Of a DNA stretch of 64,000 nucleotides, positions 7,597 through 40,167 are shown piece after piece. The translations under genes and the position numbers were made by a program. Location of the stretch: the IMG/VR virus record IMGVR_UViG_3300049855_000348, positions 1-64,000 of that record; one strand, written 5' to 3'. This stretch comes from a virus. The stretch's first letter is position 1, and every line of letters starts with the position of its first letter. The notes under the pieces are model-generated. The model searched no databases and was not told where the DNA came from. It was given only the letters and a program-made list of their open reading frames with translations.

Positions 7597-7604
7597 GCCG
7601 ATCA

Positions 7605-7630
7605 AACCCCGGGTTGCCCCGGGGTTTTTT
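7605..7630 (+). terminator. rho-independent terminator
   Basis: AAACCCCGGG-ttg-CCCCGGGGTTTTTT, 9 nt after the stop of the 6553..7596 gene. Confidence 0.85.
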
Positions 7631-12360: not shown

Positions 12361-13733
12361 TGGCTAAAGAAAAAATTGGTGCAGCCGGCATGACCCGTGG
12401 CCCCGTTCAGGGTGCTGACGTTGGTGCCACTCGTAATTCTCCTCCGCTATCGGCACAGGAGCAGGAGGCGAATCGTCAGAGTGATGAAGTCAACATCGCT
12501 GACGCCAAGACCAACATTGCCAACAACAACATGCCGGCAGCCAACCAGAATGTGGCCAATATCCATGATCCGCAGAAACGCATTGAAATGCACAATCAGT
12601 TGGCTGCTGCTGGTGGTGCCGAGTCTCCGCCCGCGAGCCTGTTCAAAGATGGTAGCGGCGGACTCTCTGATCCGCTAGCTCTCTTCTTTATGATGGTGTT
12701 TTACCTCGACAAGGCTTCGCCGACATTCAACTGGAATGATGTGCTGAAGACCGCCAGCGATAATGGCGGGGACAACGTCAAATTCGGAACCATCAAGGTC
12801 GAGGATGGTTTCCTCCCACAACGCCGCTTCAGCGATTCCAACGTTCAGACACCACCAGTGGTTTCATCGAGTGCTGGAAACACCAGTCCAGAAACCACAC
12901 GTGAACTCAACACAAAGCAGACCGAGGTCGGTGCGCAGAAAGATGCCAACCCCAACCCGACAGCCGTCAGTCAGGGTCAGGGCACGTCTGAAAAGAAGGC
13001 CGGTAACGTCATTGTCTGGCCAACCCAGACTATGCCGATCATCTCTGGTGGTATGAACAAGAGTGTTGATTGGCCAAGTCAATCAGTGGCGACTTTGGCT
13101 GAACCAGTTCTCTCGCTCAACAAGGGTGCTTCACCTATCGAGATCGACATCGAGTTCGTCTATGCCGTTGGTACCTTCGGCATCGGTGATGGTGAGATCA
13201 GCGGCTACAGCAGTGTTGGTGACAAGGACCGTGGAGGTGAACCAGCCAGCACATCAGAGCCGCCTCTGACGAACCGCCAGAAGGGCTGGTGGACTGTTGA
13301 GGAGATCATGGGTGCGATGTATCTCGCCACCTCCCTAGTCTATCCATTCAAGAGCAGTCAGGTAGTATCCAAGGGAGTGAAGGACAAGGAGAGTGCTGGT
13401 GCTCAAGCGCAGTTCCCTGTGATCTTCATGCGGCATTACAGCCTCTTCCCCTTCCTGACGCCGTTCGTCGTCAAGGCGGTCAAGATCGAGCCAGATGAGG
13501 AACAGCCGCTCATCGTGACGGAACCACTCAACCTCAACAAGACCATGAAGTCTCACCTGACCTTCCCAGCCGTGCGTCAGGTCGTGAAGATCACCCTATC
13601 GATGATCTCGGCTCACTACTACCTGCCGGTCTTTGGTGGTAAGGACGAAGGCAATCAGATTCAGATTCAAACTTCAGGTGAGACCTATCTTGCCCTGGCT
13701 CAAAGTCTCTTGGGTAAAAGGTTAGAAAAATAA
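12360..13733 (+). CDS. hypothetical tail/baseplate-associated protein
   Basis: 457-aa ORF. Its ATG overlaps the TMP stop (TAATG). Confidence 0.6.
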   Translation: MAKEKIGAAGMTRGPVQGADVGATRNSPPLSAQEQEANRQSDEVNIADAKTNIANNNMPAANQNVANIHDPQKRIEMHNQLAAAGGAESPPASLFKDGSGGLSDPLALFFMMVFYLDKASPTFNWNDVLKTASDNGGDNVKFGTIKVEDGFLPQRRFSDSNVQTPPVVSSSAGNTSPETTRELNTKQTEVGAQKDANPNPTAVSQGQGTSEKKAGNVIVWPTQTMPIISGGMNKSVDWPSQSVATLAEPVLSLNKGASPIEIDIEFVYAVGTFGIGDGEISGYSSVGDKDRGGEPASTSEPPLTNRQKGWWTVEEIMGAMYLATSLVYPFKSSQVVSKGVKDKESAGAQAQFPVIFMRHYSLFPFLTPFVVKAVKIEPDEEQPLIVTEPLNLNKTMKSHLTFPAVRQVVKITLSMISAHYYLPVFGGKDEGNQIQIQTSGETYLALAQSLLGKRLEK

Positions 13734-13738
13734 ACCAT

Positions 13739-14059
13739 ATGCCTGACTATGGAAGTAACAGCCGTTTCAGCACAGACGACGAATTCAAGGTCGTCACCCG
13801 TAAAGGCGTGACCCTTGGTACAGTCACCATCATGCCAGTCCCCAACCGTGGGCCGGACGACTCGCAGTACATCGTACCGCTGAACTTCCAATACCGGTGG
13901 GATCTCCTGGCCAACGCATTGCTGGGTGATCCAAACGACAAGTGGATCCTGATGCGCCACAATCGCATTGAGGACCCGTTTACCGGTCCTTTGGCCGGTG
14001 ATCGTCTGCTGGTGCCTACGGCTGATCAGATCGCTTATTACAGGGGTCAGCAGAGCTAA
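13739..14059 (+). CDS. small tail-module protein (possibly tail-X/LysM-like)
   Basis: 106 aa. The C-terminal ...WDLLANALLGDPNDKWILMRHNRIEDPF..LAGDRLLVP pattern gives only a weak resemblance. Confidence 0.45.
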   Translation: MPDYGSNSRFSTDDEFKVVTRKGVTLGTVTIMPVPNRGPDDSQYIVPLNFQYRWDLLANALLGDPNDKWILMRHNRIEDPFTGPLAGDRLLVPTADQIAYYRGQQS

Positions 14060-14081
14060 GTGTTCGGTCCAGAGTGAACGG

Positions 14082-14109
14082 TTGACATAGATTGTGGTGT
14101 CGCTAATAA
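14082..14109 (+). promoter_or_regulatory. class I promoter, upstream member of a tandem pair
   Basis: TTGACATAGATtgtggtGTCGCTAATAA. Confidence 0.6.
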
Positions 14110-14134
14110 ATTGGCATGCGCCCACAACCAGTCG

Positions 14135-14162
14135 TTGACTTCGACCCTTTTGTCGCTATACT
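14135..14162 (+). promoter_or_regulatory. class I promoter with leaderless geometry
   Basis: TTGACTTCGACccttttGTCGCTATACT. The ATG at 14169 lies exactly 7 nt after the -10 hexamer. Confidence 0.75.
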
Positions 14163-14168
14163 GTGAGC

Positions 14169-14510
14169 ATGCAAAAGAAACTCATCACCCTGGAACTCGA
14201 AACTGAAGTCGGTGGCCCGGCGCGGATGCCCCGTGCGCCCCAACTGCCAGTCCCCGAAACCTACTTCGATACCCTGTGGATGGCGATCGAAGGGTGGTAC
14301 AACTACCTCAGCTTCAAAGGTGCGCAGAAGGGCTGGGGTGAGCCCGCGACCTTCCTGTCTGATCTGGATGTCAAGGTGATGTACGCCGGACAGACCCAGC
14401 AGTTCCTGATCCCCTACGTCAACGGCAAGGGCAGCCACGCCATGCTGATCACCATCTACAAGCGCGACGAAGGTCAGCGCGTGTACGAGGTCACCGCTTA
14501 CAACTCCTGA
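14169..14510 (+). CDS. hypothetical early protein (probably a leaderless mRNA)
   Basis: ATG at the predicted +1. The ORF track's GTG at 14163 would lie inside the -10/discriminator region. Confidence 0.55.
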   Translation: MQKKLITLELETEVGGPARMPRAPQLPVPETYFDTLWMAIEGWYNYLSFKGAQKGWGEPATFLSDLDVKVMYAGQTQQFLIPYVNGKGSHAMLITIYKRDEGQRVYEVTAYNS

Positions 14511-14516
14511 GGATTC

Positions 14517-15059
14517 ATGAGCCCACAAGAGATCATGCGAGCCTACCCAGTAGGCCGCATCCTTGAACTGTCACCTGAGGCGAAGCATCGCATCAAGTTC
14601 CTGGCAGTGTGCCTTGATAACATCGACCTCTGCCAGCGTAAATTGCAAGACAAGCTCGGTGGAATGCATGCAATCGGCCAGCCCGTCACCGGCGAGCAGA
14701 TCACCGAGGTGATCGACAACATGCTCGATGCCCAACCGTTCGAGGGGATGATCTCGCTCACCCTCGGCGAGGGATGGAATGGTCCGGAAGCGATCATCCA
14801 CGCCAAGAATTCGGCTCGATGCCTGCGCAAGGTCATCTGGTCGGTGATCTACGACGATGTCGTCGCCACCTACAGCATCACGTTCTCGGTCTGGAAGAAA
14901 CTCAAGTGCTCGCTGCTGGAGAATCCACCCGGTGGTGGCGTTCTCATTCGTGGCTACGAGTTCGCCGAGAAGGAACTCGGACACGAGGGTAAGTCGAACC
15001 GCCCTGATGTCTGTCCCGACTTCCCACCGATGGGTCTCATGGATGAGGATGAGGAATGA
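14517..15059 (+). CDS. hypothetical protein
   Basis: 180-aa ORF with GAGGA upstream of the ATG. Confidence 0.6.
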   Translation: MSPQEIMRAYPVGRILELSPEAKHRIKFLAVCLDNIDLCQRKLQDKLGGMHAIGQPVTGEQITEVIDNMLDAQPFEGMISLTLGEGWNGPEAIIHAKNSARCLRKVIWSVIYDDVVATYSITFSVWKKLKCSLLENPPGGGVLIRGYEFAEKELGHEGKSNRPDVCPDFPPMGLMDEDEE

Positions 15060-16957
15060 GCAACCTCAACCAAATCATGGAAGCGATCATGTGCTCGGAC
15101 ACCGGCGAGGAGGTCGACACCGACCCGATCGTTGGCCAGCTTGCCGGTGGAAACGCCGTCAGTTGGAAACCGTCTGACCAGATGCTTCAGGCTGCTGCCT
15201 CCCTCGGTTACGGCCAAGGCGTCTCACAGTTGAAGCCGATGATGACCCCCAAGGGTCGTCTGATCGGCTTCCCCTTCCCGACCCCACGTCCCTTTCAACT
15301 TGAAGCTGTGGATGCCGTGCTCGAAGAGTTCAAGGCCGGCAACAACGTTCTATTCGAGGCTGGTACCGGGTTCGGTAAGTCACCACTGGAGATCGGTGTC
15401 GTCTCGGCCTTCCAGTCCGCCTACCTGCTCATCGGTCGCAATGATCTGGTCGACCAATGGGAGCGTGACTTCGATCACTTCAGCAAGATCGGCTTCTACA
15501 AAGCTCGTGCTCGCTTCGACTGCACAGAGATCTCCGGCGATCGTGGCCCTCTCAACTGTTCCCAGGCCAAGACCCCCTGCGGCAAGAAGCGCCAGAGCAA
15601 AGACAACGACTGCCAAGCCTGCCCCTACGCCGTGAATCGTGATGTGGCGCTCGCCAAGCCCTACACCGTGATGACGCTGTCCCTGGGGATGACCATCTTC
15701 AAACACCTCCAGATGCACCCTGGCGTGACCAAGCGTGACGTGATGGTGATCGACGAGTGCTCAGAGCTTGAGTCTGAGATCATGAAGTTCTTCGAGTTCC
15801 AGGTGTCGACCAAGACGCTCTTCCGGGCAATTCAGAAGACGATCACCATGGGTCAGTTCTTCAGCGAAGGGGATGATTTCTATAGCCGCTGGCCGAACGT
15901 CACGCCCAGCACCAACTTCGCCATCGCCATCAACCAAATGCGCCCGATTTCAGACACCTCCGCCTGCTTCCGTTGGGCGATCGAGATCTCAGGCATTGCC
16001 CAGCAACGCATGAACTGGCTTGGTGCCGGCCAGAAGTCCGAGGAGGCTGAGAAGATCGCCGAAGCCTGCGAACAGATCATCCGCATGTGCAAGCAGGTGA
16101 TCGACGCCATCGGCGACAACGTGCCCTACTTCGGGGAGATGGTCCCAGATGAGGTTGATGGCACCTACAAGGTCCGCGTCTCCCCCCTGGAGGCTAAGGG
16201 CATGCTGAGGCGTCTCCTGGCCCCGTACGCGAAACATCTCCTGTTCGTGAGTGCTACGACCGGGTCAGCCGAGATGTTCGCTAGAACGCACTCCCTGCCC
16301 AAGGAAGCGCCTGTCGTCAAGGTGACCGCCCCGTCCGGCTTCCCGGTGGCCAATCGTATGGTCTACAACCTGCGTGCCGGCAACATGAGTAACAAGACCC
16401 AGGTGGCCGACTCCCCCTTGGTCCTGAAGATGCTGGTCGACCTCGCCACCCAACGCCAGTCAGAGCAGCCCCGGTTCGATCACATCAACCAGAAGGGCAT
16501 CATCCACACCTACAACAACAAGATCACGGACATGGTCCTGGAAGCCTTCCGGTCGGCTGGCCTTGGTCACCGGGTGATCCCTCTCAAGGGGTCTGGCAAG
16601 GCTCGTGAGCAGGCCATGGAGATCTTCACCAAGACCACCCAGCCGCTGATCCTGGTCAGTCCCTCGGCGATGCTCGGCCTGTCTCTGAATGACGATCTGG
16701 CCCGCTGGCAGGCCATCGTGAAGGTACCGTACCCGTACCTCGGGGATCAGAGCATTGCCCATCGCAAGGAGACAATCGCAGGCTGGTACGAGTGGCAGAC
16801 CGCCAAGGATCTGATCCAGACCTTCGGTCGCATCGTGCGCTCAGACAGCGACTGGGGATCCACCTACATCCTCGACGACGCCTTCACCGGGTTCTACTCC
16901 CGCAACAGTGATCTCTTTCCTGCGTTCATCCGCGAAGCCATCTGGCAGAAGCCGTGA
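15056..16957 (+). CDS. XPD/DinG-family (Rad3-like) ATP-dependent DNA helicase with a 4-Cys Fe-S-type insertion
   Basis: Walker A FEAGTGFGKS, a DEAH-like VIDECSE, and the Cys cluster C..C..C...C..C between motifs I and II. The C-terminal FGRIVRSDSDWGSTYILDDAF is typical of DinG/XPD. Confidence 0.75.
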   Translation: MSNLNQIMEAIMCSDTGEEVDTDPIVGQLAGGNAVSWKPSDQMLQAAASLGYGQGVSQLKPMMTPKGRLIGFPFPTPRPFQLEAVDAVLEEFKAGNNVLFEAGTGFGKSPLEIGVVSAFQSAYLLIGRNDLVDQWERDFDHFSKIGFYKARARFDCTEISGDRGPLNCSQAKTPCGKKRQSKDNDCQACPYAVNRDVALAKPYTVMTLSLGMTIFKHLQMHPGVTKRDVMVIDECSELESEIMKFFEFQVSTKTLFRAIQKTITMGQFFSEGDDFYSRWPNVTPSTNFAIAINQMRPISDTSACFRWAIEISGIAQQRMNWLGAGQKSEEAEKIAEACEQIIRMCKQVIDAIGDNVPYFGEMVPDEVDGTYKVRVSPLEAKGMLRRLLAPYAKHLLFVSATTGSAEMFARTHSLPKEAPVVKVTAPSGFPVANRMVYNLRAGNMSNKTQVADSPLVLKMLVDLATQRQSEQPRFDHINQKGIIHTYNNKITDMVLEAFRSAGLGHRVIPLKGSGKAREQAMEIFTKTTQPLILVSPSAMLGLSLNDDLARWQAIVKVPYPYLGDQSIAHRKETIAGWYEWQTAKDLIQTFGRIVRSDSDWGSTYILDDAFTGFYSRNSDLFPAFIREAIWQKP

Positions 16958-17145
16958 TCGAGATCCACATCGACGAAGTTACGTGGATGAGTGCTGATCC
17001 TGAAACACAGGAAGCAGCGAAACGTTCATGGCCTCCTGGCTATTTTCTTTTTCTACACGTGGTCGACCCAACGGGCCAGAAGCTCGGTCGCCATCGCTGG
17101 GATCGCCACTACCCATCTCTACCAAAGGAATCTTCATGTCCCTGA
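16954..17145 (+). CDS. small hypothetical protein
   Basis: 63 aa. The GTG overlaps the helicase stop (GTGA). Confidence 0.4.
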   Translation: MIEIHIDEVTWMSADPETQEAAKRSWPPGYFLFLHVVDPTGQKLGRHRWDRHYPSLPKESSCP

Positions 17146-18055: not shown

Positions 18056-18308
18056 AAGAACCTACGACACACTTGCCAAATTGTTCTTGCAACTGAAATC
18101 AGTCTTGCTACACCTCCACGTACCAGCCATGAGACCTCTCACCTCCATACCAGCCGTTCGCGCCACCAAGTGGCAAGCGAAGCCCATGACCAAAACGGTC
18201 AATGGCGCACAGGGTTGCTTTGGAGTGACAACTGAACGCAATCAGGCCGATCACATTCCGGAACCAGGGTTCATGTAGCAGACAAGGGTAAAACCTCCAA
18301 GCCACATG

Positions 18309-18350
18309 AACCCCGGGACCAAAAAGTCTCGGGGTTCTTCTTTTTCTGAT
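18309..18350 (+). terminator. terminator-like hairpin with a T-rich tail
   Basis: AACCCCGGGAC-caaaaa-GTCTCGGGGTT followed by CTTCTTTTT. Confidence 0.55.
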
Positions 18351-18490
18351 CCTCACGGATCTTGACAACTTTATAATCGTGGAAGCCAATGAGGGGAGAA
18401 ATCCCTTCATTCTTGGACCTACCATCCTGTTCTACTAGACAGGGAAGCCTGTGGGGAGAAATCCTCTAGCCGTGGTGGTGGTCCTGGTAT

Positions 18491-18565
18491 CGTCGAGTAT
18501 TTCAGCGGAAGAATATCTGCATGACATGCAGAAGGTCGGTGGTTCGATCCCACCCTCGACGACCA
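18491..18565 (+). tRNA. tRNA-Val(GAC)
   Basis: 75 nt. Acceptor cgtcgag/ctcgacg, T-arm ggtgg-ttcgatc-ccacc, anticodon arm tctgc-atGACat-gcaga, CCA encoded. Confidence 0.7.
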
Positions 18566-18570
18566 AACAA

Positions 18571-18648
18571 TGCGGAGTAACTGGAGATGGAACCAGCCCA
18601 GCCTCATAAGCTGAACAAACGTGTGTTCGAGTCACACCTCCGCAACCA
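18571..18648 (+). tRNA. tRNA-Met or Ile2 (CAT)
   Basis: 78 nt. Acceptor tgcggag/ctccgca, D-stem ctgg/ccag, anticodon loop ctCATaa, T-arm gtgtg-ttcgagt-cacac, CCA encoded. Confidence 0.7.
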
Positions 18649-18650
18649 TT

Positions 18651-18839
18651 TGCAAGGACCTCTCTGCCCACCATCTCGATCCTAAGAAGAAAGAAGACAA
18701 CATCGGTACGATGGTCAGAAGAAGAGTGGCTATCAAAACTTTGGAAATCGAACTGCAAAAGTGTCTCTGCGTGTGTGAGAACTGTCATCGCAAGATCCAT
18801 GCAGGTATCATCAAACCTTTTCTCAGTGCTGGATCATGA
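18651..18839 (+). pseudogene. HNH endonuclease remnant (HNH core only, no credible start)
   Basis: The frame reads ...SAHHLDPKKKEDNIG...CLCVCENCHRKIHAG.., the H-H...N...CxxCH..H core. There is no ATG upstream of the HH, and the ORF-track start lies inside the tRNA-Met. Confidence 0.5.
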
Positions 18840-18886
18840 CCGAACGCCTGTGGTCATTCCCTGGCGGGCACTCGGATTCTTCACAT

Positions 18887-18963
18887 GGTGGTCGTAGCTC
18901 AATGGATAGAGCACTGGACTGTGGCTCCAGCGGCTGTGGGTTCGACTCCCATCGATCACACCA
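18887..18963 (+). tRNA. tRNA-His(GTG)
   Basis: An extra 5' G (G-1), acceptor gtggtcg/cgatcac, D-arm gctc-aatggata-gagc, anticodon loop ctGTGgc, CCA encoded. Confidence 0.8.
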
Positions 18964-19047
18964 GTTCATTGTGCGGAGTACGCGCCTGACCCAGGCAAGA
19001 GGGTTTGCTCTAACCTCCCAGAGAAGAACGGGAGGTTGCTTCGGCAT

Positions 19048-19121
19048 GGCTTGGTCGCTCAACGGCAGGGCGCTGGTTTGAAAAACCAGAGACGAAGGTT
19101 CGACTCCTTCTCAAGCCACCA
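19048..19121 (+). tRNA. tRNA-Phe(GAA)
   Basis: 74 nt. Anticodon arm ctggt-ttGAAaa-accag, T-arm gaagg-ttcgact-ccttc, CCA encoded. Confidence 0.8.
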
Positions 19122-19133
19122 TCTCCTTCTCAC

Positions 19134-19211
19134 GGTCGGTTCACTGCATGGTGCAGTGTGCGCAAGGACAGTCCCCTAAGCACGGCGGTTCGATTCCCCG
19201 GCTGACCACCA
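19134..19211 (+). ncRNA. tRNA-like RNA A: normal acceptor, D-arm, T-loop and CCA but no canonical anticodon arm
   Basis: Acceptor ggtcggt/gctgacc and D-arm actg-catggtg-cagt. The 26 nt at the anticodon position form only gtgc/gcac around an 18-nt loop, gcAAGGacagtCCCCTAAgc. No 5-bp/7-nt arm is found in any register. Confidence 0.5.
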
Positions 19212-19221
19212 TTTTTTTCAT

Positions 19222-19294
19222 CGGCTGGAATAGGTGCGCGTAAGGCATCAGATCCCCTCAAGCGATGGAGGTTCGATTCCTCCCTGGCCGACCA
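19222..19294 (+). ncRNA. tRNA-like RNA B: 7-bp acceptor, T-arm and CCA with a 38-nt non-cloverleaf body
   Basis: Acceptor cggctgg/ctggccg and T-arm ggagg-ttcgatt-cctcc. The body contains cgc-GTAAGGcatcagatCCCCTCAA-gcg. Confidence 0.5.
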
Positions 19295-19407
19295 AGTACG
19301 ACTTCTCGGGTTCCGCAAGGAACGATCGTCCTACTGGCTACAACGGTGAAAATCCGGTGGATGCCAGAGGTGGTGGGATGGCTCACCAAATAAACTGAGA
19401 CTCATAA
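19295..19407 (+). ncRNA. structured spacer RNA (GNRA-capped helices), homologous at its 3' end to 19485..19592
   Basis: Helices gttcc-GCAA-ggaac, ctggc...gccag enclosing ccgg-tgaaaat-ccgg, and ggtg...cacc, followed by AAATAAACTGAGACT. Confidence 0.4.
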
Positions 19408-19484
19408 GCACCGATCGGCTGGTGGAAAAGCTACCTCCCTTTCAAGGAGATTCTTCGCGGGTTCGACTCCCGTTCGGTGTACCA
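19408..19484 (+). tRNA. tRNA-Glu(TTC)
   Basis: 77 nt. Acceptor gcaccga/tcggtgt, anticodon loop ctTTCaa, T-arm gcggg-ttcgact-cccgt, CCA encoded. Confidence 0.75.
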
Positions 19485-19592
19485 ACGACGGAGCACAGTG
19501 ATCGAAAGATCGACCGGCTAGGCAACTCGCAAGAGTGCTCGAAAGGGCGGAGTCTAGTGGGGTGTAAGCACCTCGAATAAACTGTGAGTTAT
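19485..19592 (+). ncRNA. structured spacer RNA (GAAA- and GCAA-capped helices)
   Basis: Helices gatc-GAAA-gatc, actc-GCAA-gagt, gagcac...gtgctc and ggtg-taag-cacc, followed by GAATAAACTGTGAGTT. Confidence 0.4.
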
Positions 19593-19666
19593 GGTCCTTT
19601 CTGTCAGTGGCAGGCAGCCTGATTCTCAGTCAGACAACGTCGGTTCGATTCCGACAAGGACTACCA
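19593..19666 (+). tRNA. tRNA-Glu(CTC)
   Basis: 74 nt. Acceptor ggtcctt/aaggact, D-arm tgtc-agtggca-ggca, anticodon loop ttCTCag, T-arm gtcgg-ttcgatt-ccgac, CCA encoded. Confidence 0.65.
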
Positions 19667-19670
19667 GCAA

Positions 19671-19766
19671 GAGCGGGACACTGGTTCGAGGCCAGTCATC
19701 GCAAGATGTAGCTCAGGGTGAAAACGTAAGGCATCAAACCCCCAAGTAATCCGGAAGAGCACGCTC
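19671..19766 (+). ncRNA. circularly permuted tRNA-like RNA X1 (T-arm, then GCAA-capped acceptor-like hairpin, then D-arm; the termini form the anticodon-like stem)
   Basis: GAGCG-ggac-ACTGG-ttcgagg-CCAGT-CATC-gcaa-GATG-ta-GCTC-[42-nt insert with GTAAGGcatcaaaCCCCCAAG]-GAGC-a-CGCTC. Every helix was read directly. Confidence 0.55.
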
Positions 19767-19771
19767 TATTT

Positions 19772-19849
19772 GTTCCTGAGGACTAACGGCTAGGTCACCT
19801 CCCTGTCACGGAGTCATTCAAGTGGGTTCAACTCCCATCAGGAACGCCA
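19772..19849 (+). tRNA. tRNA-Asp(GTC)
   Basis: 78 nt. Acceptor gttcctg/caggaac, anticodon loop ctGTCac, T-arm gtggg-ttcaact-cccat, CCA encoded. Confidence 0.75.
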
Positions 19850-19853
19850 ACAT

Positions 19854-19927
19854 CCACGCTTCGTCTAATGGCAGGGCACCGATCTGATACGTCGGATACC
19901 AAGGTTCGATTCCTTGAGCGTGGACCA
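19854..19927 (+). tRNA. tRNA-Ile(GAT)
   Basis: 74 nt. Acceptor ccacgct/agcgtgg, anticodon arm ccgat-ctGATac-gtcgg, T-arm caagg-ttcgatt-ccttg, CCA encoded. Confidence 0.75.
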
Positions 19928-19941
19928 CTTCAGTTTCACAT

Positions 19942-20016
19942 TGTGGGATGGCCTATGTGGTAGGGCACCCGGTTGTTACCCGGACTATACTGGTTCGACT
20001 CCAGTTCCCACAGCCA
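19942..20016 (+). tRNA. tRNA-Asn(GTT)
   Basis: 75 nt. Acceptor tgtggga/tcccaca, anticodon loop ttGTTac, T-arm actgg-ttcgact-ccagt, CCA encoded. Confidence 0.75.
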
Positions 20017-20021
20017 CTTTT

Positions 20022-20097
20022 GGGGTCGTAGCTCAATTGGCAGAGCACCTGTTTTGCACGCAGGATGTTAGCGGTTCAAGTCCGCTCGATTCCACCA
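20022..20097 (+). tRNA. tRNA-Ala(TGC)
   Basis: 76 nt. G3:T70 wobble present, anticodon arm cctgt-ttTGCac-gcagg, CCA encoded. Confidence 0.8.
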
Positions 20098-20167
20098 CGC
20101 GGGAGTAATCTGAGAAATCAGAGAGAATTACCAGCCTCACAGCCGGCAAGGAGTAGACTGTGGTTTT

Positions 20168-20243
20168 GGGGAGTTAGCTCATCTGGTAGAGCGCGAGCAT
20201 GGCATGTTCGAGGCGAGGAGTTCAAGTCTCCTACTCTCCACCA
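20168..20243 (+). tRNA. tRNA-Ala(GGC)
   Basis: 76 nt. G3:T70 wobble present, anticodon arm cgagc-atGGCat-gttcg, CCA encoded. Confidence 0.75.
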
Positions 20244-20602
20244 CTTTCAATCATACGGGCGGCGATATCTCAGAAGCGTAAGGATGATCCCCCAAGTTAT
20301 GAGAAAATCCTATGGGGTGAAAGCCCTCAACTGTCCACCACTCGATCGGAACGTCAGTCGCAGCGTAAGGCTTTTATCAAATCCCCAAGCTGTGCAGTAA
20401 CGCAACTGCTGGTGAAAGACCAGCCTGATCACTCTTCAAACGAAACCCTGGCGGTGAAAAACCGCTTCCTCGGCGCATCCCCTACGTTGGTCTACCTCTG
20501 AAGTTTATCGACCCAGGGCTTCGTGTTTCTGCTAGCTAGATTCATGGGTACCATCAGCGACATCGACGATCAACTCTACGTTCAGCACATCAAGTAACGC
20601 AT
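20244..20602 (+). ncRNA. about 360-nt non-tRNA structured region rich in GNRA-capped helices, with two copies of the GTAAGG..CCCCAAG loop motif
   Basis: Helices gggt-GAAA-gccc, gctggt-GAAA-gaccagc, gcggt-gaaaa-accgc, gcagt-aacgca-actgc and cagc-[GTAAGGcttttatcaaatCCCCAA]-gctg. The only ORFs are short and overlap tRNAs. Confidence 0.4.
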
Positions 20603-20677
20603 ACGTCGATAGCTCCAATGTAGAGCGACGGTTTCCAAAACCGTTGGTTGGGGGTTCAAGTCCCTCTCGACGTGCCA
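20603..20677 (+). tRNA. tRNA-Trp(CCA)
   Basis: 75 nt. Acceptor acgtcga/tcgacgt, anticodon arm acggt-ttCCAaa-accgt, CCA end encoded. Confidence 0.8.
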
Positions 20678-20682
20678 TTCAC

Positions 20683-20757
20683 TGAGAGATAGTTCAACGG
20701 TAGAACGCTGCCCTCTGGAGGCAGATGCTAGAGGTTCGAGTCCTCTTCTCTCAACCA
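20683..20757 (+). tRNA. tRNA-Gln(CTG)
   Basis: 75 nt. Anticodon arm ctgcc-ctCTGga-ggcag, T-arm agagg-ttcgagt-cctct, CCA encoded. Confidence 0.8.
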
Positions 20758-20760
20758 CAC

Positions 20761-20835
20761 TCAGGAATAGTTCAACGGTAGAACGCTGACCTTTGGAGTC
20801 AGTTGCTCCAGGTTCGAGTCCTGGTTCCTGAACCA
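20761..20835 (+). tRNA. tRNA-Gln(TTG)
   Basis: 75 nt. Anticodon arm ctgac-ctTTGga-gtcag, T-arm ccagg-ttcgagt-cctgg, CCA encoded. Confidence 0.8.
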
Positions 20836-20843
20836 TTTCACAT

Positions 20844-20922
20844 CTGCGTGTAGCTCAGCCTGGAACAGAGCACTTGCCTTGGGAGCAAGGGGTCGGAGGT
20901 TCAAATCCTCTCACGTAGACCA
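20844..20922 (+). tRNA. tRNA-Pro(TGG)
   Basis: 79 nt. Anticodon arm cttgc-ctTGGga-gcaag, T-arm ggagg-ttcaaat-cctct, CCA encoded. Confidence 0.8.
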
Positions 20923-20927
20923 TTCAT

Positions 20928-21009
20928 GACGGTCGAGTCGAAAGTCGGGCGCTCCGGCATCAGATTGCAACCCTGATGACAGGTGGTTGAACTCCACCGA
21001 TCGTCTCCA
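20928..21009 (+). tRNA. tRNA-Cys(GCA) with an enlarged (about 14-nt) D-loop
   Basis: 82 nt. Acceptor gacggtc/gatcgtc, D-stem gtcg/cggc, anticodon loop ttGCAac with an A:C at the 31:39 pair, T-arm ggtgg-ttgaact-ccacc, CCA encoded. Confidence 0.55.
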
Positions 21010-21014
21010 TTCAC

Positions 21015-21090
21015 GTGTGTGTATCTCAGTGGCTAGAGAGCTTCCTTGCCAAGGAAGAGGTCGCAGGTTCAAGTCCTGTCACACACTCCA
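21015..21090 (+). tRNA. tRNA-Gly(GCC)
   Basis: 76 nt. Anticodon arm cttcc-ttGCCaa-ggaag, CCA encoded. Confidence 0.8.
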
Positions 21091-21092
21091 AC

Positions 21093-21161
21093 AGGGGCAA
21101 ATGCGGGTTCAACTCCCGCTGCGACTTCGGTCGTATCGTCTAACCCGGTAGGACGGCCCCA
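21093..21161 (+). ncRNA. circularly permuted tRNA-like core X2 (T-arm, then UUCG-capped acceptor-like hairpin, then D-arm); further helices extend to about 21282
   Basis: aGGGG-caaat-GCGGG-ttcaact-CCCGC-t-GCGAC-ttcg-GTCGT-at-CGTC-taacccggtag-GACG-g-CCCC. Downstream helices are ccgtgcgg/ccgcacgg and ccgctc/gagcgg. Confidence 0.5.
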
Positions 21162-21282
21162 CCCCGTGCGGATTGGATACCCGCACGGAATCCGAAGTCC
21201 TCAGGTTCAAGCCAAGGCAACCGCTCGCCGAGCGGAATACAAAATGCGGCTAGAGCAGGGGAGCACGAACGTGGCCCCGTTT

Positions 21283-21356
21283 GCCGATGTAGGTCAATGG
21301 TAGATCTGCTGCCTTCCAAGCAGAGGACGCGGGTTCGATTCCCGCCATCGGCTCCA
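21283..21356 (+). tRNA. tRNA-Gly(TCC)
   Basis: 74 nt. Acceptor gccgatg/catcggc, anticodon loop ctTCCaa, T-arm gcggg-ttcgatt-cccgc, CCA encoded. Confidence 0.8.
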
Positions 21357-21360
21357 TCAT

Positions 21361-21436
21361 GTGTGCCTAGCTCAATGGATAGAGCATCTGACTACGGATC
21401 AGAAGGTTGAAGGTTCGAGTCCTTCGGTACACGCCA
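21361..21436 (+). tRNA. tRNA-Arg(ACG)
   Basis: 76 nt. Anticodon arm tctga-ctACGga-tcaga, T-arm gaagg-ttcgagt-ccttc, CCA encoded. Confidence 0.8.
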
Positions 21437-21469
21437 TTGCATAGCGATCTTTTTGGCTAGCATGTAACC

Positions 21470-21997
21470 ATGTCACTCAAAGATGCCCTCTTTCACTTTC
21501 GTGATCTTGGTTACTACGTTGATGATCAAGGAAATGTATTCAACCCAAGAGGAAAGATTCTTCGGTGTTCAACAAACAAAGATGGTTACAAAAGAATTAC
21601 CACAAGAATGAGAAATCATCCAGTTCATGGGGATTGGTGCCCTAAGGTTGAGGTTCACCGTCTTGCCGGTTATCAGAAGTTCGGAGACAAAATCTTCACC
21701 GAAGGACTTGAGATCTGTCACGATGATGGCGATAAGCGAAACAACGCCAAAGACAATCTGCGACTCGATACGCACAAAAGTAATATGATGGATGTTCCTC
21801 AAGAGGTAAGGATCAATAGAGCAAGACGTGCTGGTAGAGAACATGCCAAGCTAACAGATGAGCAGGTTGCTCACATTCGTTCATCTGGCATGACTCTGAA
21901 ACAGATCATGCAAACATACGGTATCAGTAAGTCTGGTGCCTCCTACGTCAGATCAGGAAAGACTTACGCCAGCCCGTGTATCCCCTCGCTTTCCTAA
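21470..21997 (+). CDS. HNH (HNH_3-type) homing endonuclease with a C-terminal HTH
   Basis: 175 aa with ...GYKRITT...EVHRLAGYQKFG...EICHDDGDKRNNAKDNLRLDTHKSN.. and LTDEQVAHIRSSGMTLKQIMQTYGISKSG. The gene is AT-richer than its surroundings and is embedded in the tRNA array. Confidence 0.75.
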   Translation: MSLKDALFHFRDLGYYVDDQGNVFNPRGKILRCSTNKDGYKRITTRMRNHPVHGDWCPKVEVHRLAGYQKFGDKIFTEGLEICHDDGDKRNNAKDNLRLDTHKSNMMDVPQEVRINRARRAGREHAKLTDEQVAHIRSSGMTLKQIMQTYGISKSGASYVRSGKTYASPCIPSLS

Positions 21998-22051
21998 AGC
22001 GGTGAAAGGGTAACTGGACACATGCAGGTTCAAATCCTGCCTCGGGTACCA
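21972..22051 (+). ncRNA. atypical tRNA-like RNA E1 (possible tRNA-Arg(CCT) lacking a D-arm)
   Basis: Acceptor gcccgtg/ctcgggt (one T:T mismatch), then 7 nt, then arm tcgct-ttCCTaa-agcgg, then 21 nt, then T-arm gcagg-ttcaaat-cctgc and A-CCA. Its 5' end overlaps the HNH gene's 3' end. Confidence 0.4.
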
Positions 22052-22054
22052 CAT

Positions 22055-22132
22055 CGGGGTCCTAGTACGGGAGTGTCTGCATACCATTCGGTCACTACAG
22101 CCTCGGCGGTTCAATCCCGCCAACCTCGACCA
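22055..22132 (+). ncRNA. tRNA-like RNA with acceptor, T-arm and CCA but a long hairpin in place of the D and anticodon arms
   Basis: Acceptor cggggtc/aacctcg (6 of 7 pairs) and T-arm ggcgg-ttcaatc-ccgcc. The body forms agtgtctg-cataccatt-cggtcact, an 8-bp stem with a T:T mismatch and a 9-nt loop. Confidence 0.4.
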
Positions 22133-22135
22133 CAT

Positions 22136-22211
22136 GCGATCGTATTTCAATTGGAAGAACACCACCCTCCGAAGGTGGAAGGTGCAGGTTCGAGTCCTGC
22201 CGATCGCGCCA
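22136..22211 (+). tRNA. tRNA-Arg(CCG)
   Basis: 76 nt. Anticodon arm ccacc-ctCCGaa-ggtgg, T-arm gcagg-ttcgagt-cctgc, CCA encoded. Confidence 0.8.
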
Positions 22212-22214
22212 TCT

Positions 22215-22290
22215 GGTGACGTAGCTCAATGGACAGAGCTTCCAGCTTCTACCTGGATGGTTGGAGGTTCGAGTCCTCCCGTCATCGCCA
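22215..22290 (+). tRNA. tRNA-Arg(TCT)
   Basis: 76 nt. Anticodon arm tccag-ctTCTac-ctgga, T-arm ggagg-ttcgagt-cctcc, CCA encoded. Confidence 0.8.
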
Positions 22291-22294
22291 TCAT

Positions 22295-22369
22295 GCTGCC
22301 ATAGCCGAGTGGTAAGGCACTTCATTCGTAACGAAGAGACCGGGTGTTCGATTCACCCTGGCAGCACCA
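22295..22369 (+). tRNA. tRNA-Thr(CGT)
   Basis: 75 nt. Acceptor gctgcca/tggcagc, anticodon loop ttCGTaa, T-arm gggtg-ttcgatt-caccc, CCA encoded. Confidence 0.7.
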
Positions 22370-22373
22370 TCAC

Positions 22374-22449
22374 GCCCCCATAGCTCAGTTGGTAGAGCAA
22401 CAGTTTTGTAAACTGTAGGTCGTCGGTTCGATCCCGACTGGTGGCTCCA
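22374..22449 (+). tRNA. tRNA-Thr(TGT)
   Basis: 76 nt. Anticodon arm acagt-ttTGTaa-actgt, T-arm gtcgg-ttcgatc-ccgac, CCA encoded. Confidence 0.8.
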
Positions 22450-22456
22450 TTTTCAC

Positions 22457-22530
22457 GCTGCTATAGTTCAGTGGTAAAACACGTCCTTGGTAAGGACGAG
22501 CCCCAGGTTCAATTCCTGGTAGCAGCACCA
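22457..22530 (+). tRNA. tRNA-Thr(GGT)
   Basis: 74 nt. Anticodon arm cgtcc-ttGGTaa-ggacg, T-arm ccagg-ttcaatt-cctgg, CCA encoded. Confidence 0.8.
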
Positions 22531-22535
22531 TTCAT

Positions 22536-22611
22536 CCATCAGTAGCGTAATTGGCAGCGCAGCGGGTTTTTACCCCGTGGGTTGTGAGTTCGACTCTCAC
22601 CTGATGGACCA
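22536..22611 (+). tRNA. tRNA-Lys(TTT)
   Basis: 76 nt. Anticodon arm gcggg-ttTTTac-cccgt, T-arm gtgag-ttcgact-ctcac, CCA encoded. Confidence 0.8.
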
Positions 22612-22617
22612 TCGCAT

Positions 22618-22693
22618 GCATCCATAGCTCAACTGGCAGAGCACTCGGTTCTTACCCAAGGGGTTGGAGGTTCAAATCCTCCTGGATGCACCA
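22618..22693 (+). tRNA. tRNA-Lys(CTT)
   Basis: 76 nt. Acceptor gcatcca/tggatgc, anticodon loop ttCTTac, T-arm ggagg-ttcaaat-cctcc, CCA encoded. Confidence 0.75.
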
Positions 22694-22707
22694 TCATTAC
22701 ATAAGTC

Positions 22708-22941
22708 ATGCCAGCATGGAAATGGATGATCCTGAAGTTCTGTACCAGAGCGCATTTCATGCGGCTCATAGCAACCTTGATCATCCTCATCGCAGGCTTT
22801 CAATCTCTCTACTACCAGAAGATTGAAGACACGTGGTTGATCCTGGTTGGTGCAGTGATGAACCACTACTTCAACCACAAAGAAGCTGCGAACGTCACGG
22901 AAGAAGACAAGAATCCGGACGACGAATGCAAGGTCGGTTAG
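22708..22941 (+). CDS. small two-TM membrane protein (hypothetical) inside the tRNA array
   Basis: 77-aa ORF with two hydrophobic segments (LIATLIILIAGF and WLILVGAVM). Its 3' end overlaps the next tRNA by 10 nt. Confidence 0.4.
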   Translation: MPAWKWMILKFCTRAHFMRLIATLIILIAGFQSLYYQKIEDTWLILVGAVMNHYFNHKEAANVTEEDKNPDDECKVG

Positions 22942-23006
22942 TTCAGCGGTAGAACGCTTCTCTTACACGGAAGATGTCGGGGGTTCGATCCCCTCACCGA
23001 CTACCA
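22932..23006 (+). tRNA. tRNA-Val(TAC)
   Basis: 75 nt. Acceptor ggtcggt/accgact, anticodon arm cttct-ctTACac-ggaag, T-arm ggggg-ttcgatc-ccctc, CCA encoded. Confidence 0.8.
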
Positions 23007-23011
23007 CTTGC

Positions 23012-23091
23012 CGGTCTGTATCGGCTCGGTCTTATAAGCCGTCGAAACCGTAATTGGTTACATGAGGGTTCGACTCCCTCCAGACCGACCA
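23012..23091 (+). ncRNA. atypical tRNA-like RNA E2 (possible tRNA-Ile(TAT) lacking a D-arm); same architecture as E1
   Basis: Perfect acceptor cggtctg/cagaccg, then 8 nt, then arm cggt-ctTATaa-gccg, then 22 nt with an aacc/ggtt hairpin, then T-arm gaggg-ttcgact-ccctc and A-CCA. It lies immediately upstream of an HNH gene. Confidence 0.4.
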
Positions 23092-23126
23092 CAAGGCTTC
23101 CACGATTCCCCTCCAAGGAGAACGCC

Positions 23127-23678
23127 ATGGCACCCGGTGCCTGCATAGTGCTGAACAACTCGTATGCCTTCCTCTCGATCAACAACTGGTTCGAGGCGAT
23201 GCGTCTCGTCGTCCGTGGCCGCGCCGTGCCGCTGGCAAACTACGAGACCAAGATCCGGGCAGAGCGTGAAGAGTTCGACGCACCAGCAGTCGTGATGCTG
23301 AAGCACCACGTGAACCTGGGGCGGAGAAGGCAACCTTTCACCCTGCCATCACATCGCAACATCTGGGTCCGTGATGGTGGGCACTGCGCCTACTGCAATC
23401 ACCCGCTGACGCTGCGGACAGTGACCAAGGAACACGTGATGCCCAGGTCACGCGGTGGAGAAGACAGCCTCTTGAACGTCGTGTCCGCCTGTGGCGACTG
23501 CAACGCCAAGAAGTCGAACCGCACGCCGGCAGAAGCCGGCATGAAGTTCCGTGACGGCATCGAACTGCGTCACCTCAACGATGAGGAGAAGCTGACGGTG
23601 CTGCTCAAGACCTCCCAGAGCCACGAACGGAAGACGTGGCTGGGGTTCCTCAAGAAGCAGGGTCTGACGCTGTTCTGA
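23127..23678 (+). CDS. HNH endonuclease (McrA-like)
   Basis: ATG at 23127 after AAGGAGAA. Motifs CAYCNH...EHVMPRSRGGEDSLLNVVSACGDCNAKKSN are present. The longer ORF-track start at 22974 runs through tRNAs and was rejected. Confidence 0.75.
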   Translation: MAPGACIVLNNSYAFLSINNWFEAMRLVVRGRAVPLANYETKIRAEREEFDAPAVVMLKHHVNLGRRRQPFTLPSHRNIWVRDGGHCAYCNHPLTLRTVTKEHVMPRSRGGEDSLLNVVSACGDCNAKKSNRTPAEAGMKFRDGIELRHLNDEEKLTVLLKTSQSHERKTWLGFLKKQGLTLF

Positions 23679-23896: not shown

Positions 23897-24578
23897 TCAC
23901 TCCATCAAGCCGTCCAGGTCCCCCTTCATCCAAGCACGCACCGTGATGGATCGCCCTGTGCGGTGGTCCCTCACGTTGTCGTTCTGCACCTGGATGGTGC
24001 GGATCTTGTCACCACGCTCGCCGGAGCCTATCTGCTGCCGGCGATCGTCGTTTTGATCGGTATGGTGTTGGGTAGCGATGCCCCCCGCCAGACGCTCCTG
24101 TAACAGGGCCATGGCAGCATGCTTGTTCGACAACTGGTGGCGCTCTTTGTCGGCACGGACAGTCATGCCCGTCGGACGATGGGTGATCTGCACACCCGAC
24201 TCAGTCTTGTTGCGGTGCTGACCACCTGGGCCAGATCCACGGACGGTGATGATATCCAGGTCGCGTTCATCCAGCACGAACTTCTGCTGCTGGCTTCCAT
24301 CGATCACCGCCACGGTGACCGTCGAGCTATGGACACGACCCTTGCGCTCAGTGGGTGGAACCCGCTGCCAACGATGGCCGCCTGCTTCTTGGCTGAAGGC
24401 TTCTTTGGCTCCCTTACCAGTAACGGTGAGCCGCAGAAAGCCGTGAGACTCTTGATCCACTACAACTTCAAAGACCCCTCCGCGCTCCCCATTTGCGATA
24501 GATGGTGAGGTGTTCGCGCACGAGCAATCGTGCGTCCTCGCCGCCTTCAGCGGCTCTGATTTCGAGGTGGATAGTCAT
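23897..24578 (-). CDS. RF1-like peptide chain release factor lacking domain 1; needs a +1 ribosomal frameshift at CTT TGA: join(24578..24471, 24469..23897) on the minus strand
   Basis: Frame 0 reads MTIHLEIRAAEGGEDARLLVREHLTIYRKWGARRGL then TGA. The +1 frame continues EVVVDQESHGF...GGHRWQRVPPTERKGRVHSSTVTVAV...GSGPGGQHRNKTESGV (a PxT-like PPT and the GGQ motif). The slip site is cGGAGGGGT CTT TGA A. Confidence 0.8.
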
Positions 24579-39878: not shown

Positions 39879-39967
39879 TGGCGGAAGTGGCACGAATCGA
39901 ACGTGCAAGACCCGTGAAGGTCTGTTGAGGTTCAAGCTCAGTCCCCTCGCCTATAGGGAGCACTTCC
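39879..39967 (-). tRNA. tRNA-Ser(TGA), class II
   Basis: 89 nt. Acceptor ggaagtg/cacttcc, anticodon loop ctTGAac, long variable arm agacc-ttcac-gggtct, T-arm gcacg-ttcgatt-cgtgc, CCA encoded. Confidence 0.75.
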
Positions 39968-39972
39968 ATGAA

Positions 39973-40064
39973 TGGCGGATACGGCAGGATTTGAACCTGC
40001 GGGTGACTTGCGCCACCTCCTAGTTTCGAGCTAGGTGCGATAAGCCGGGCTCTGCCACGTATCC
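39973..40064 (-). tRNA. tRNA-Ser(CGA), class II
   Basis: 92 nt. Anticodon arm cctag-ctCGAaa-ctagg, long variable arm, CCA encoded. Confidence 0.75.
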
Positions 40065-40069
40065 ATGAA

Positions 40070-40162: not shown

Positions 40163-40167
40163 ATGAA

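Follow-up and report, generated by a model that had tools for sequence, protein, structure and literature searches.

A permuted tRNA-like RNA flanked by glycine tRNA genes in an uncultured jumbo phage

Our question was what fills the gap between two glycine tRNA genes in the plus-strand tRNA array of a 64,000-nucleotide (nt) stretch of viral DNA (IMG/VR record IMGVR_UViG_3300049855_000348, positions 1 to 64,000; the whole stretch is called the window), whose source is an uncultured jumbo phage. The gap runs from the encoded CCA end of tRNA-Gly(GCC) (21015-21090; ARAGORN, Rfam tRNA 67.3 bits) to the start of tRNA-Gly(UCC) (21283-21356; ARAGORN, Rfam tRNA 65.8 bits), and all 192 nt of it are taken up by an element that we call X2. 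Coordinates refer to the plus strand of the window unless another strand or sequence is named. An initial annotation, made from the letters alone, had described X2 as a permuted tRNA-like module with a helical extension. We find a circularly permuted cloverleaf followed by a 3' hairpin domain, and comparison with a homologue at the same site of a related phage, L003 (part of a 191,330-bp contig), indicates that X2 is maintained by selection as a structured non-coding RNA of about 190 nt. This structure has good support, and we hold it very probably correct. The explanation that we favour for the whole, on which our belief is evenly divided, is that of a selected RNA of ~190 nt with a permuted tRNA body and a 3' domain, which would be released from the tRNA operon and act as a Y-RNA-like adaptor or decoy; the part that concerns function is a reasoned guess.

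The permuted cloverleaf and its conservation

Positions 21094-21160 form a circularly permuted cloverleaf with zero mismatches, in the order anticodon-stem 3' strand, variable loop, T arm, UUCG-closed acceptor, D arm and anticodon-stem 5' strand. A leader of 3 nt (ACA, 21091-21093, by direct reading; CC in L003) is followed by GGGGC (21094-21098), which corresponds to tRNA positions 39-43 and has its partner at 21156-21160. Next come a variable loop of 4 nt (AAAU, 21099-21102, by direct reading; AACU in L003) and the T arm GCGGG-UUCAACU-CCCGC (21103-21119, from covariation and from alignment to the Rfam YrlA model discussed below), whose loop is canonical with T54, psi55, C56, R57 and A58. The YrlA alignment also places the acceptor-stem equivalent UGCGAC-UUCG-GUCGUA (21120-21135), a closed helix of 6 bp with a C(UUCG)G cap and, in the window copy, no free CCA end, and the linker UC (21136-21137; UA in L003), which stands for tRNA positions 8-9 and supplies U8. 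The D arm GUCU-AACCCGGUA-GGAC (21138-21154) is placed by the same alignment and by covariation, and covariation again identifies the equivalent of G26 and the 5' strand GCCCC of the anticodon stem (positions 27-31) at 21155-21160.

The bases that make tertiary contacts in tRNA (U8, A14, A15, G18, G19, A21, U48 and those of the T loop) stand at their canonical positions in X2. The nucleotides for U8:A14, 15:48, G18/G19 with psi55/C56 and T54:A58 are present in both phages; an A15:U48 Levitt pair is possible in X2, and L003 likewise has A15 and U48. Folded in isolation, the 67-nt module adopts the permuted four-way junction as its minimum free energy (MFE) structure in both phages.

Every helix that the initial annotation listed for X2 could be found by direct inspection, and its permuted tRNA-like topology is borne out by the MFE fold, by the strict descriptor described next and by the YrlA alignment. 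Two registers had to be shifted. The outer stem and the variable loop are present, with 5 bp (GGGGC/GCCCC) and 4 nt being a better reading than the 4 bp and 5 nt first given. The acceptor and D stems had been drawn one base off and become a 6-bp UGCGAC/GUCGUA helix, the linker UC and a GUCU/GGAC stem, the original linker length of 2 nt being right. Both corrections have the support of the L003 copy and of the alignment to the Rfam YrlA model.

The chance of finding such a fold in a tRNA array was estimated with a strict descriptor, which consists of a perfect T arm (loop TTCRANY), a closed acceptor with 6 bp or more, a D stem of 4 bp whose loop contains GG and a closing stem of 5 bp. X2 is the sole match in the real array, and shuffles that retained all 31 perfect T arms gave 7 matches in 5000, or about 0.0014 per array. 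A looser descriptor that tolerates at most one mismatch is poorly stringent (87 matches in 500 such shuffles), so the case rests on the strict descriptor together with conservation. When the looser descriptor was run on 1.26 Mb of DNA, the only mismatch-free sites were X2 (also seen in L002, the Logan copy of the window's own contig) and the L003 homologue; one extra site, with one mismatch, is a tRNA-tRNA junction.

ARAGORN does not call X2 a tRNA and Rfam has no tRNA match on it, and X2 has neither a contiguous canonical tRNA cloverleaf nor a closed 7-nt anticodon loop. A protein-coding role was rejected, as the overlapping open reading frames (ORFs) are short and overlap tRNAs, none of them was kept, and the lengths of the indels between the phages are not divisible by three. 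We also rejected closure of the module by the distal GCCCC at 21273-21277, which appears in the MFE fold of the whole region, since this pairing is not kept in L003 while the proximal pairing covaries.

The phage L003 has a helicase 59% identical to that of the window and a syntenic tRNA array, and its X2 homologue of 215 nt lies at the same site, between tRNA-Gly(GCC) and tRNA-Gly(UCC). The overall identity of the two elements is 59%, which is not above that of the least conserved syntenic tRNAs. In an alignment of these two sequences that was built by hand with the helices in mind, so that the count is descriptive and not a probability, there are 39 comparable base pairs: 21 unchanged, 3 with a single-side change that still pair, 15 with double compensatory changes and 0 broken. 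Sliding the 3' partners by 1-3 columns as a control breaks 22-30 of the pairs. The anticodon-like stem has 2 double and 1 single compensatory changes (L003 GAGGG/CUCUC), the T stem 2 double (GGAGG/CCUCC), the acceptor double changes in 5 of its 6 comparable pairs (CUGGGGC/GCCCCGG) and the D stem 1 double and 1 single (GUUC/GAAC). The remaining changes lie in two hairpins of the 3' domain, H1 with 4 double compensatory changes (L003 CCGAUCAC/GUGAUCGG) and H3 with 1 double and 1 single (CCGCUU/AGGCGG). Identity is low and yet the pairs are kept, so it is the fold and not the sequence that has been retained. This agrees with the view of the initial annotation that the structure is a selected one, and the 8-bp and 6-bp helices that it saw in the extension are both present and both covary. 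It had named absence from related phages as grounds for dropping the module; L003 carries the module at the syntenic site.

Beyond L003, homologues were sought in several collections. INPHARED phages gave no X2 homologue and no close match to the window by megablast or blastn. DNA-pattern scans of IMG/VR for X2 gave no homologue, the sole 2 matches being tRNA-Met junction artefacts, and in the same database a protein search with the helicase found no relative and a helicase-profile search found relatives at 23-26% only. A pattern scan of JGI metagenome contigs returned 63 matches, all by chance, from a collection that evidently lacks both source contigs. A loose pattern with 20 specified bases, run on GTDB genomes, had no true X2 among the matches listed (at least 120). 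As for helicase relatives, the sequences of L004, L010 and L141 end before the Gly tRNAs, and L005-L007 have no tRNA array after the helicase.

The 3' three-fifths of X2 folds into four consecutive hairpins (RNAalifold on the hand alignment), of which H1 and H3 are supported by covariation and H2 and H4 are predicted. The linker ACC (21161-21163, from comparison with L003) forms with the first bases of H1 a block ACCCCG that is identical in L003 and stands where the anticodon loop would start. H1, CCGUGCGG-AUUGGAUAC-CCGCACGG, has 8 bp (21164-21188). A linker AAUCCG and the putative H2 follow (21189-21220, RNAalifold on the structure-guided alignment); in H2 the G[U]CCU of the invariant AAGUCCU would pair with AGGC in a second invariant block, GGCAA, a pairing that is the same in both phages and encloses a variable hairpin of 14 nt in the window and 36 nt in L003. 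H3, CCGCUC-GCC-GAGCGG, has 6 bp (21221-21235) and is succeeded by a kept single-stranded block AAUACAAAAU + GC (21236-21247; GAUACUAAAU + AAU in L003). The last piece (21248-21282, from comparison with L003) holds the putative H4, GGCUA...UGGCC, and a tail CCGUUU up to the RNase P site; both H4 strands are invariant in L003, with a loop of 19 nt in the window and 3 nt in L003. The conserved blocks that stay unpaired are ACC(CCG), AUAC.AAAU and GGCUAG. An H-type pseudoknot between the loop of H1 and the downstream AUCCGA is possible in the window; it was rejected for want of a counterpart in L003.

Two of the conserved blocks could be taken for something more specific. AAGUCC and ACAAAAUGCGGCUAG may be read as CR-I and CR-V (P4 with its bulged U) of a miniature RNase P-like core with a tRNA-like substrate or guide attached to it. 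The two phages do not differ in either block, AAG(U)CC/GGCU could form a P4-like helix with a bulged U, and ACAAAAUGCGGCUAG agrees in the same register at 10 of 15 positions with ACAGAACCCGGCUUA of E. coli M1 RNA. These motifs are short and were noticed post hoc, their spacing is off by 1 nt in L003, and a local hairpin of AAGUCCU with the neighbouring GGC(AA) is the simpler pairing. Since no Rfam RNase P or MRP match appears at E <= 10 in either sequence, permissive searches included, we consider such a core highly improbable, close to negligible.

The same domain bears on whether X2 needs a function in trans at all. It could be a cis-acting spacer or the decaying relic of a tandem duplication, at most a folding insulator or processing aid. 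The operon is rich in odd tRNA derivatives, the identity to L003 is low, the folding energy of the whole 192-nt region is modestly better than that of shuffles (z = -2.5), and the 3' extension is not kept in the more distant phage L262 introduced below. The compensatory changes counted above are spread over six helices with no pair broken, which argues against neutral decay, and the nucleotides of the tRNA tertiary contacts are all retained in both phages. A spacer role would also leave unexplained the conserved single-stranded blocks AAGUCCU, GGCAA, AUAC.AAAU and GGCUAG, and since most neighbouring tRNAs lie only 3-10 nt apart no spacer is needed here. We therefore see this as a decidedly unlikely account of X2.

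Relation to YrlA RNAs and Ro60

The sole Rfam match in both phages is to YrlA (RF02553), at 27.3 bits (E = 7e-4) for X2 and 26.1 bits (E = 9e-4) for L003. It is a local match to model positions 30-81 of 114, which hold the T arm, the closed acceptor stem and the D arm. YrlA RNAs are tRNA-like Y RNAs bound by bacterial Ro60/Rsr (PMC4201824; doi 10.1101/312249). X2 has the design of their 'effector-binding' tRNA-like module, with the same permuted order, including the loop-closed acceptor stem, the 2-nt linker, the D arm and the anticodon-stem strands, as well as an acceptor of about 6 bp and the tertiary-contact nucleotides, with the A15:U48 Levitt alternative among them. In contrast to YrlA, X2 lacks the terminal stem that is formed from the 5' and 3' ends and carries the Ro60-binding site; its anticodon-like stem is a plain 5-bp helix flush with the 5' end of the RNA, and its non-tRNA module is the 3' domain of four hairpins and ~120 nt. 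An alternative distal pairing in the whole-region MFE fold, which would be a candidate terminal stem, is not kept in L003. X2 also differs in sitting between tRNA genes, so that its ends would presumably be made by tRNA-processing enzymes, and in not being adjacent to rsr. Modification by TruB and DusA is a further mark of the YrlA family.

A link to Ro60 becomes apparent when looking at jumbo phages that are more distant. One of them, L262 (a part of a contig of 159,747 bp), was reached via a homologue of the HNH endonuclease encoded at 21470-21997 of the window. Its tRNA array has a gene order similar to that of the window and contains, at 12868-14394, the gene for a 508-amino-acid TROVE protein. 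A YrlA match of 36.1 bits (12523-12592) lies about 280 nt upstream of this gene, and a separate descriptor, for the order T arm, closed hairpin, D arm, finds three modules within 1 kb upstream of it (11939-11996, 12326-12383 and 12531-12586). The first of these is in the position of X2, after a genuine tRNA-Gly(CCC) and before tRNA-Gly(GCC); it starts 2 nt past a CCA and has a multi-hairpin extension of ~135 nt. L264 (about 150 kb, found in three samples) has TROVE at 10001-11653, likewise inside a tRNA array, a full-length YrlA match at 7526-7627 (35.7 bits) and additional modules at 9595-9650 and 13504-13556; the acceptor of its YrlA match, CAGCGC-UUCG-GCGCUG, is of the same design as that of X2, with 6 bp and UUCG. 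Among the 120 clusters listed as homologues of the L262 TROVE protein, one clade has 49-73% identity and bacterial Rsr about 45%, the bacterial matches being mostly from Opitutaceae and other Verrucomicrobiota; we take the 49-73% clade to be phage-encoded. Permuted tRNA mimics thus recur in such jumbo-phage tRNA arrays, in some lineages beside a phage Ro60 gene, and X2 is a subtype that has retained the mimic, lacks a Ro stem and endures with no Ro60 gene close by.

Two further observations concern these RNAs. The YrlA-like RNA at L262 12531-12586 has an 8-bp acceptor helix with the loop CCACAU, which is readable as G-1:C73 plus CCA, a tRNA-His-like end. A motif GCAGCAA(G/A) occurs upstream of the YrlA-like RNAs (L262 12483-12870; L264 7500-7860 and 9990-10003) and also directly before the TROVE start codons (GGAGCAGCAAACAUG; GGUGCAGCAACCCAUG); it could serve as a phage promoter or as a signal for processing or translation.

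How X2 could be made is suggested by its surroundings. The only terminator-like sites on the plus strand are at 18308-18337 and 24540-24554, bracketing the array, so X2 is most simply part of the tRNA operon transcript; the same scan found no promoter-like site before the array. The region 18308-18375, directly ahead of the array, has a strong terminator-like hairpin (12 bp and a U run) followed by TTGACA and TATAAT, which are just 4 nt apart and so do not make a standard sigma-70 promoter. We propose that 3' maturation of tRNA-Gly(GCC) would set the 5' end of X2 and RNase P cleavage at tRNA-Gly(UCC) its 3' end. The T/D elbow of the L-shaped body would then engage a tRNA-recognising protein, as has been proposed for YrlA, and the 3' domain could bind a second partner, which would make X2 a Y-RNA-like adaptor or decoy. 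Because TROVE lies beside such modules in L262 and L264, the context of Ro60 and RNA quality control and repair is the leading candidate. The partner in this phage would be a host Rsr or another protein. Nothing in X2 resembles a Ro site, but the early pointer to Rsr-like proteins looks apt in view of the YrlA-type fold and of the TROVE genes among modules in distant phages.

Several points weigh against this proposal. The score of X2, 27 bits, compares with a YrlA gathering score of 69, and the YrlA model gives similar scores to tRNA-tRNA junctions of this array, so the score alone proves little; adjacent tRNAs are a pitfall of YrlA searches about which Chen et al. 2014 (PMC4201824) caution. 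Unlike in a junction, the two acceptor strands of X2 form a helix with each other, as do its two outer strands, and neither half is part of a complete tRNA. The 5' strand of a terminal stem is impossible in X2, as there are only 3 nt after the upstream CCA, and a regular-expression search for the motif GNCGAAN0-1G found none in X2. TROVE was absent from the 50 largest window ORFs in a Pfam scan, tblastn with the two phage TROVE proteins found nothing in the 64-kb window or in L003, and none of the 120 listed clusters of L262-TROVE homologues is on the contig of the window or of L003. Both phages therefore apparently lack TROVE, with 64 kb and 21 kb of sequence seen, respectively. The 3' domain has no Rfam match in either phage, permissive searches of small regions included, and cannot be aligned with the extension of the L262 module. 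Finally, only two sequences can be aligned, which puts H2, H4 and any long-range pairing beyond the reach of covariation. Given no Ro stem, no motif and no nearby TROVE, we do not file X2 as YrlA; it is best called a variant of the YrlA class of tRNA mimics, with which it shares the tRNA-mimic module.

The absence of a Ro stem leads to our main alternative. With its acceptor sealed and its anticodon end open, X2 resembles a tRNA nicked in the anticodon loop, and it could be a Ro60-independent decoy or mimic of such a tRNA in a tRNA-centred arms race, either sequestering a host factor that senses, cleaves or modifies tRNAs or tRNA halves, or recruiting phage RNA-repair enzymes. Anticodon-nuclease-linked defences, RtcR-type sensors and acceptor-end-modifying toxins would be candidates. 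X2 is under structural selection in two phages apparently without TROVE, and the investment in tRNAs is heavy (33 in the window by ARAGORN, and more tRNA-like RNAs), together with a protein that has RF-1 and PCRF domains. L262 has both a module in the X2 position and a separate YrlA-like RNA by TROVE, which suggests that the two types are not redundant. In Salmonella, the rtc-rsr repair operon is reported to respond to nicked tRNAs and tRNA halves as signals. The idea derives from topology, however, and a mimic without an anticodon loop cannot compete for the anticodon nucleases themselves, so we think this decoy unlikely.

The phage lineage of the window keeps the mimic under structural selection, but the stem for Ro60 binding is gone, apparently together with the Ro60 gene, and a different conserved domain is attached. 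More distant jumbo phages have a TROVE/Ro60 gene next to several such RNAs in a tRNA array. In this natural series the two parts of a Y RNA come apart, so that the role of the tRNA mimic can be studied by itself.

The acceptor loop and a possible tRNA origin

The closed acceptor end differs between the window copy and L003. In L003 the acceptor is a 7-bp helix with the loop A-CCA-U before G1, and the module at L262 12326-12383 has the same N7-A-CCA-U-N7 format; this loop points to an origin in which a tRNA was duplicated in tandem, leaving a 3' half in front of a 5' half. The YrlA of M. smegmatis, whose acceptor stem has 7 bp, is cut by RNase P and has CCA added to it (PMC4201824). By the same token the 7-bp acceptor and A-CCA-U loop of L003 would be a ready-made putative RNase P site with encoded CCA, whereas the window copy with its 6 bp and UUCG cap is predicted to be a poor RNase P substrate. 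As the window copy is capped by C(UUCG)G and has no CCA, a free CCA end is not required for the role of X2 in this phage.

De-permuted in silico, X2 and its L003 homologue are both called tRNA-Gly(CCC) by ARAGORN with the anticodon read as CCC, a call that depends on taking the 7 nt after the stem as the loop (ACCCCGU/A), which has no U33. We regard this link as a hint about origin, not function. It could nevertheless be taken further, in that X2 would be a permuted gene derived from tRNA-Gly(CCC), whose acceptor loop is processed (RNase P cutting 5' of G1, the CCA being repaired) to give a two-piece, CCA-ended and possibly aminoacylated RNA; religation into a decoding tRNA would be less likely. 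Consistent with this are the common de-permutation result, the shared 7-bp A-CCA-U format of L003 and L262 12326-12383, the M. smegmatis precedent of RNase P cleavage and CCA, and the place of X2 among Gly isoacceptors in two phages neither of which has tRNA-Gly(CCC) in the sequence examined. The window copy speaks against it with 6 bp, a stable UUCG cap and no CCA, as does the loop, composed by us from the 7 nt after the stem, which lacks U33, and the 5' leader of 2-3 nt is too short for a joining helix. L262 has a genuine tRNA-Gly(CCC) directly upstream of its X2-position module. Neither a G3:U70 pair nor another clear identity set is present, and there is no sequence similarity to any particular tRNA of either array. 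A gene of this kind is in our judgement very unlikely.

In the permuted tRNA genes of C. merolae and other algae the 3' half also lies upstream of the 5' half with a short spacer at the acceptor end, and in L003 the halves are joined through A-CCA plus 1 nt. In contrast to these genes, the termini of X2 have no bulge-helix-bulge or joining element (the 2-3-nt leader forms no helix), and no plausible processing would leave an intact anticodon loop. Unlike two-piece or permuted transfer-messenger RNA (tmRNA), X2 has no tag reading frame, and positions 3:70 are U:A in X2 and C:G in L003; neither an ARAGORN tmRNA call nor an Rfam tmRNA_permuted match falls on X2. A tmRNA-like tag was rejected because the frames differ between the phages, with indels of 1 and 22 nt.

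Non-tRNA transcripts among tRNAs have precedents. The tRNA cluster of phage T4 encodes small stable RNAs (species 1 and 2, RNA C and D) whose function is not known and which, like X2 in our proposal, are co-transcribed with phage tRNAs and released by the tRNA-processing machinery; to our knowledge they have not been described as permuted cloverleaves. In eukaryotic systems, mascRNA/MALAT1 and the tRNA-miRNA TMERs of MHV68 use tRNA-like processing handles. There too a tRNA-shaped module is fused to hairpins and ends are set by RNase P or RNase Z, but the module has the normal order and an open acceptor end and is not permuted.

The acceptor loops allow a wider form of the nicked-tRNA idea, in which X2-type RNAs, with a permuted tRNA body flush with the 5' end and a 3' hairpin domain of their own, would be a distinct Ro60-independent class of phage tRNA-array RNAs that mimic anticodon-nicked tRNA, those of L003 and L262 12326-12383 being in addition split by RNase P at the encoded A-CCA-U loop to give two-piece RNAs that end in CCA. 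We place this on the unlikely side. If true, X2-type RNAs would bind a factor of tRNA sensing, tRNA repair or tRNA-targeting defence, either to intercept it or to recruit it.

The tRNA arrays and their other RNAs

The tRNA array that contains X2 covers 18491-23006, and a second array lies on the minus strand at 39879-40769. The window helicase (15056-16957) is identical to a protein on a 220,489-bp JGI contig; the window also encodes a DnaE-type polymerase and baseplate proteins and has a G+C content of 55%. A more general lesson from X2 is that the gaps of a large phage tRNA array may contain structured, conserved RNAs which tRNA finders miss, and that the ends of such gap RNAs can be predicted from the flanking tRNA-processing sites.

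A second permuted module, X1 (19671-19766), reads GAGCG/GGAC/ACUGG-UUCGAGG-CCAGU/CAUC-GCAA-GAUG/UA/GCUC...GAGC/A/CGCUC and, as first annotated, has the same helix order as X2. Its D loop has a 42-nt insertion with the motif GUAAGG..CCCCCAAG. X1 has a covarying homologue of its own at L004 5731-5824, at a syntenic site (Glu-CUC, X1, Asp) in a phage whose helicase is 83% identical to that of the window; in L003 this site lacks X1.

RNAs with an acceptor stem, a T arm and an encoded (A)CCA occupy several gaps (about 19134-19211, 19221-19294, 19723, 20276 and 20364; L003 counterparts at 13129-13338, 13417-13517, 14509-14600 and 14677-14913), in which the D and anticodon arms are replaced by a shared core of a short helix flanking G(Y)AAGG, 5-12 nt and CCC(C)(U)(C)AAG. 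They recur in both phages, are missed by ARAGORN and seem to form a family of 'armless' tRNA-like RNAs. ARAGORN also misses a tRNA at 19772-19846 (Rfam 42.9 bits) with the anticodon GUC, which we read as Asp. Just upstream of tRNA-Gly(GCC), 20929-21009 is a divergent tRNA-Cys(GCA)-like gene with a 7-bp acceptor, a T arm, a UCCA end, an expanded D region and an A.C-closed anticodon loop (no ARAGORN call; Rfam tRNA 18 bits), and L003 has a normal tRNA-Cys at the syntenic site. We rejected GUCGAAAG in this divergent tRNA-Cys as a Ro motif, since it is a C(GAAA)G tetraloop and so probably there by chance. After an HNH gene, 21972-22048 is a tRNA-like RNA just below threshold (Rfam tRNA 28 bits), and at about 22054-22135 another has an acceptor, the T arm GGCGG-UUCAAUC-CCGCC, a CCA end and a long anticodon-like arm CUGCA..UGCAG, and is nearly identical at L003 15903-15984.

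Genes for HNH_3 (21470-21997) and HNH_5 (22974-23678) endonucleases lie within the array, and L003, L262 and L264 have HNH genes too, at varied array positions, which suggests that HNH homing endonucleases shuffle array content. Just past the array, on the minus strand, a 187-amino-acid ORF (23897-24460; 138 amino acids in the gene call of the Logan copy) has an RF-1 (GGQ) domain and a PCRF fragment, from which its product would be a truncated release-factor or ArfB-like protein. In L264 there are a tmRNA (7876-8266, tag ADDHVDYAVAKAA), a tRNA with the anticodon UCA (16822-16896, called SeC, a possible opal suppressor) and a tRNA-Ile(UAU) (16902-16978). Further along the window, a 217-amino-acid ORF (43593-44246) has a sub-threshold match to the RelA/SpoT nucleotidyltransferase domain (E = 9e-5, 23 bits against a cut-off of 27), and its product may be a small alarmone-synthetase or toxSAS-like protein.

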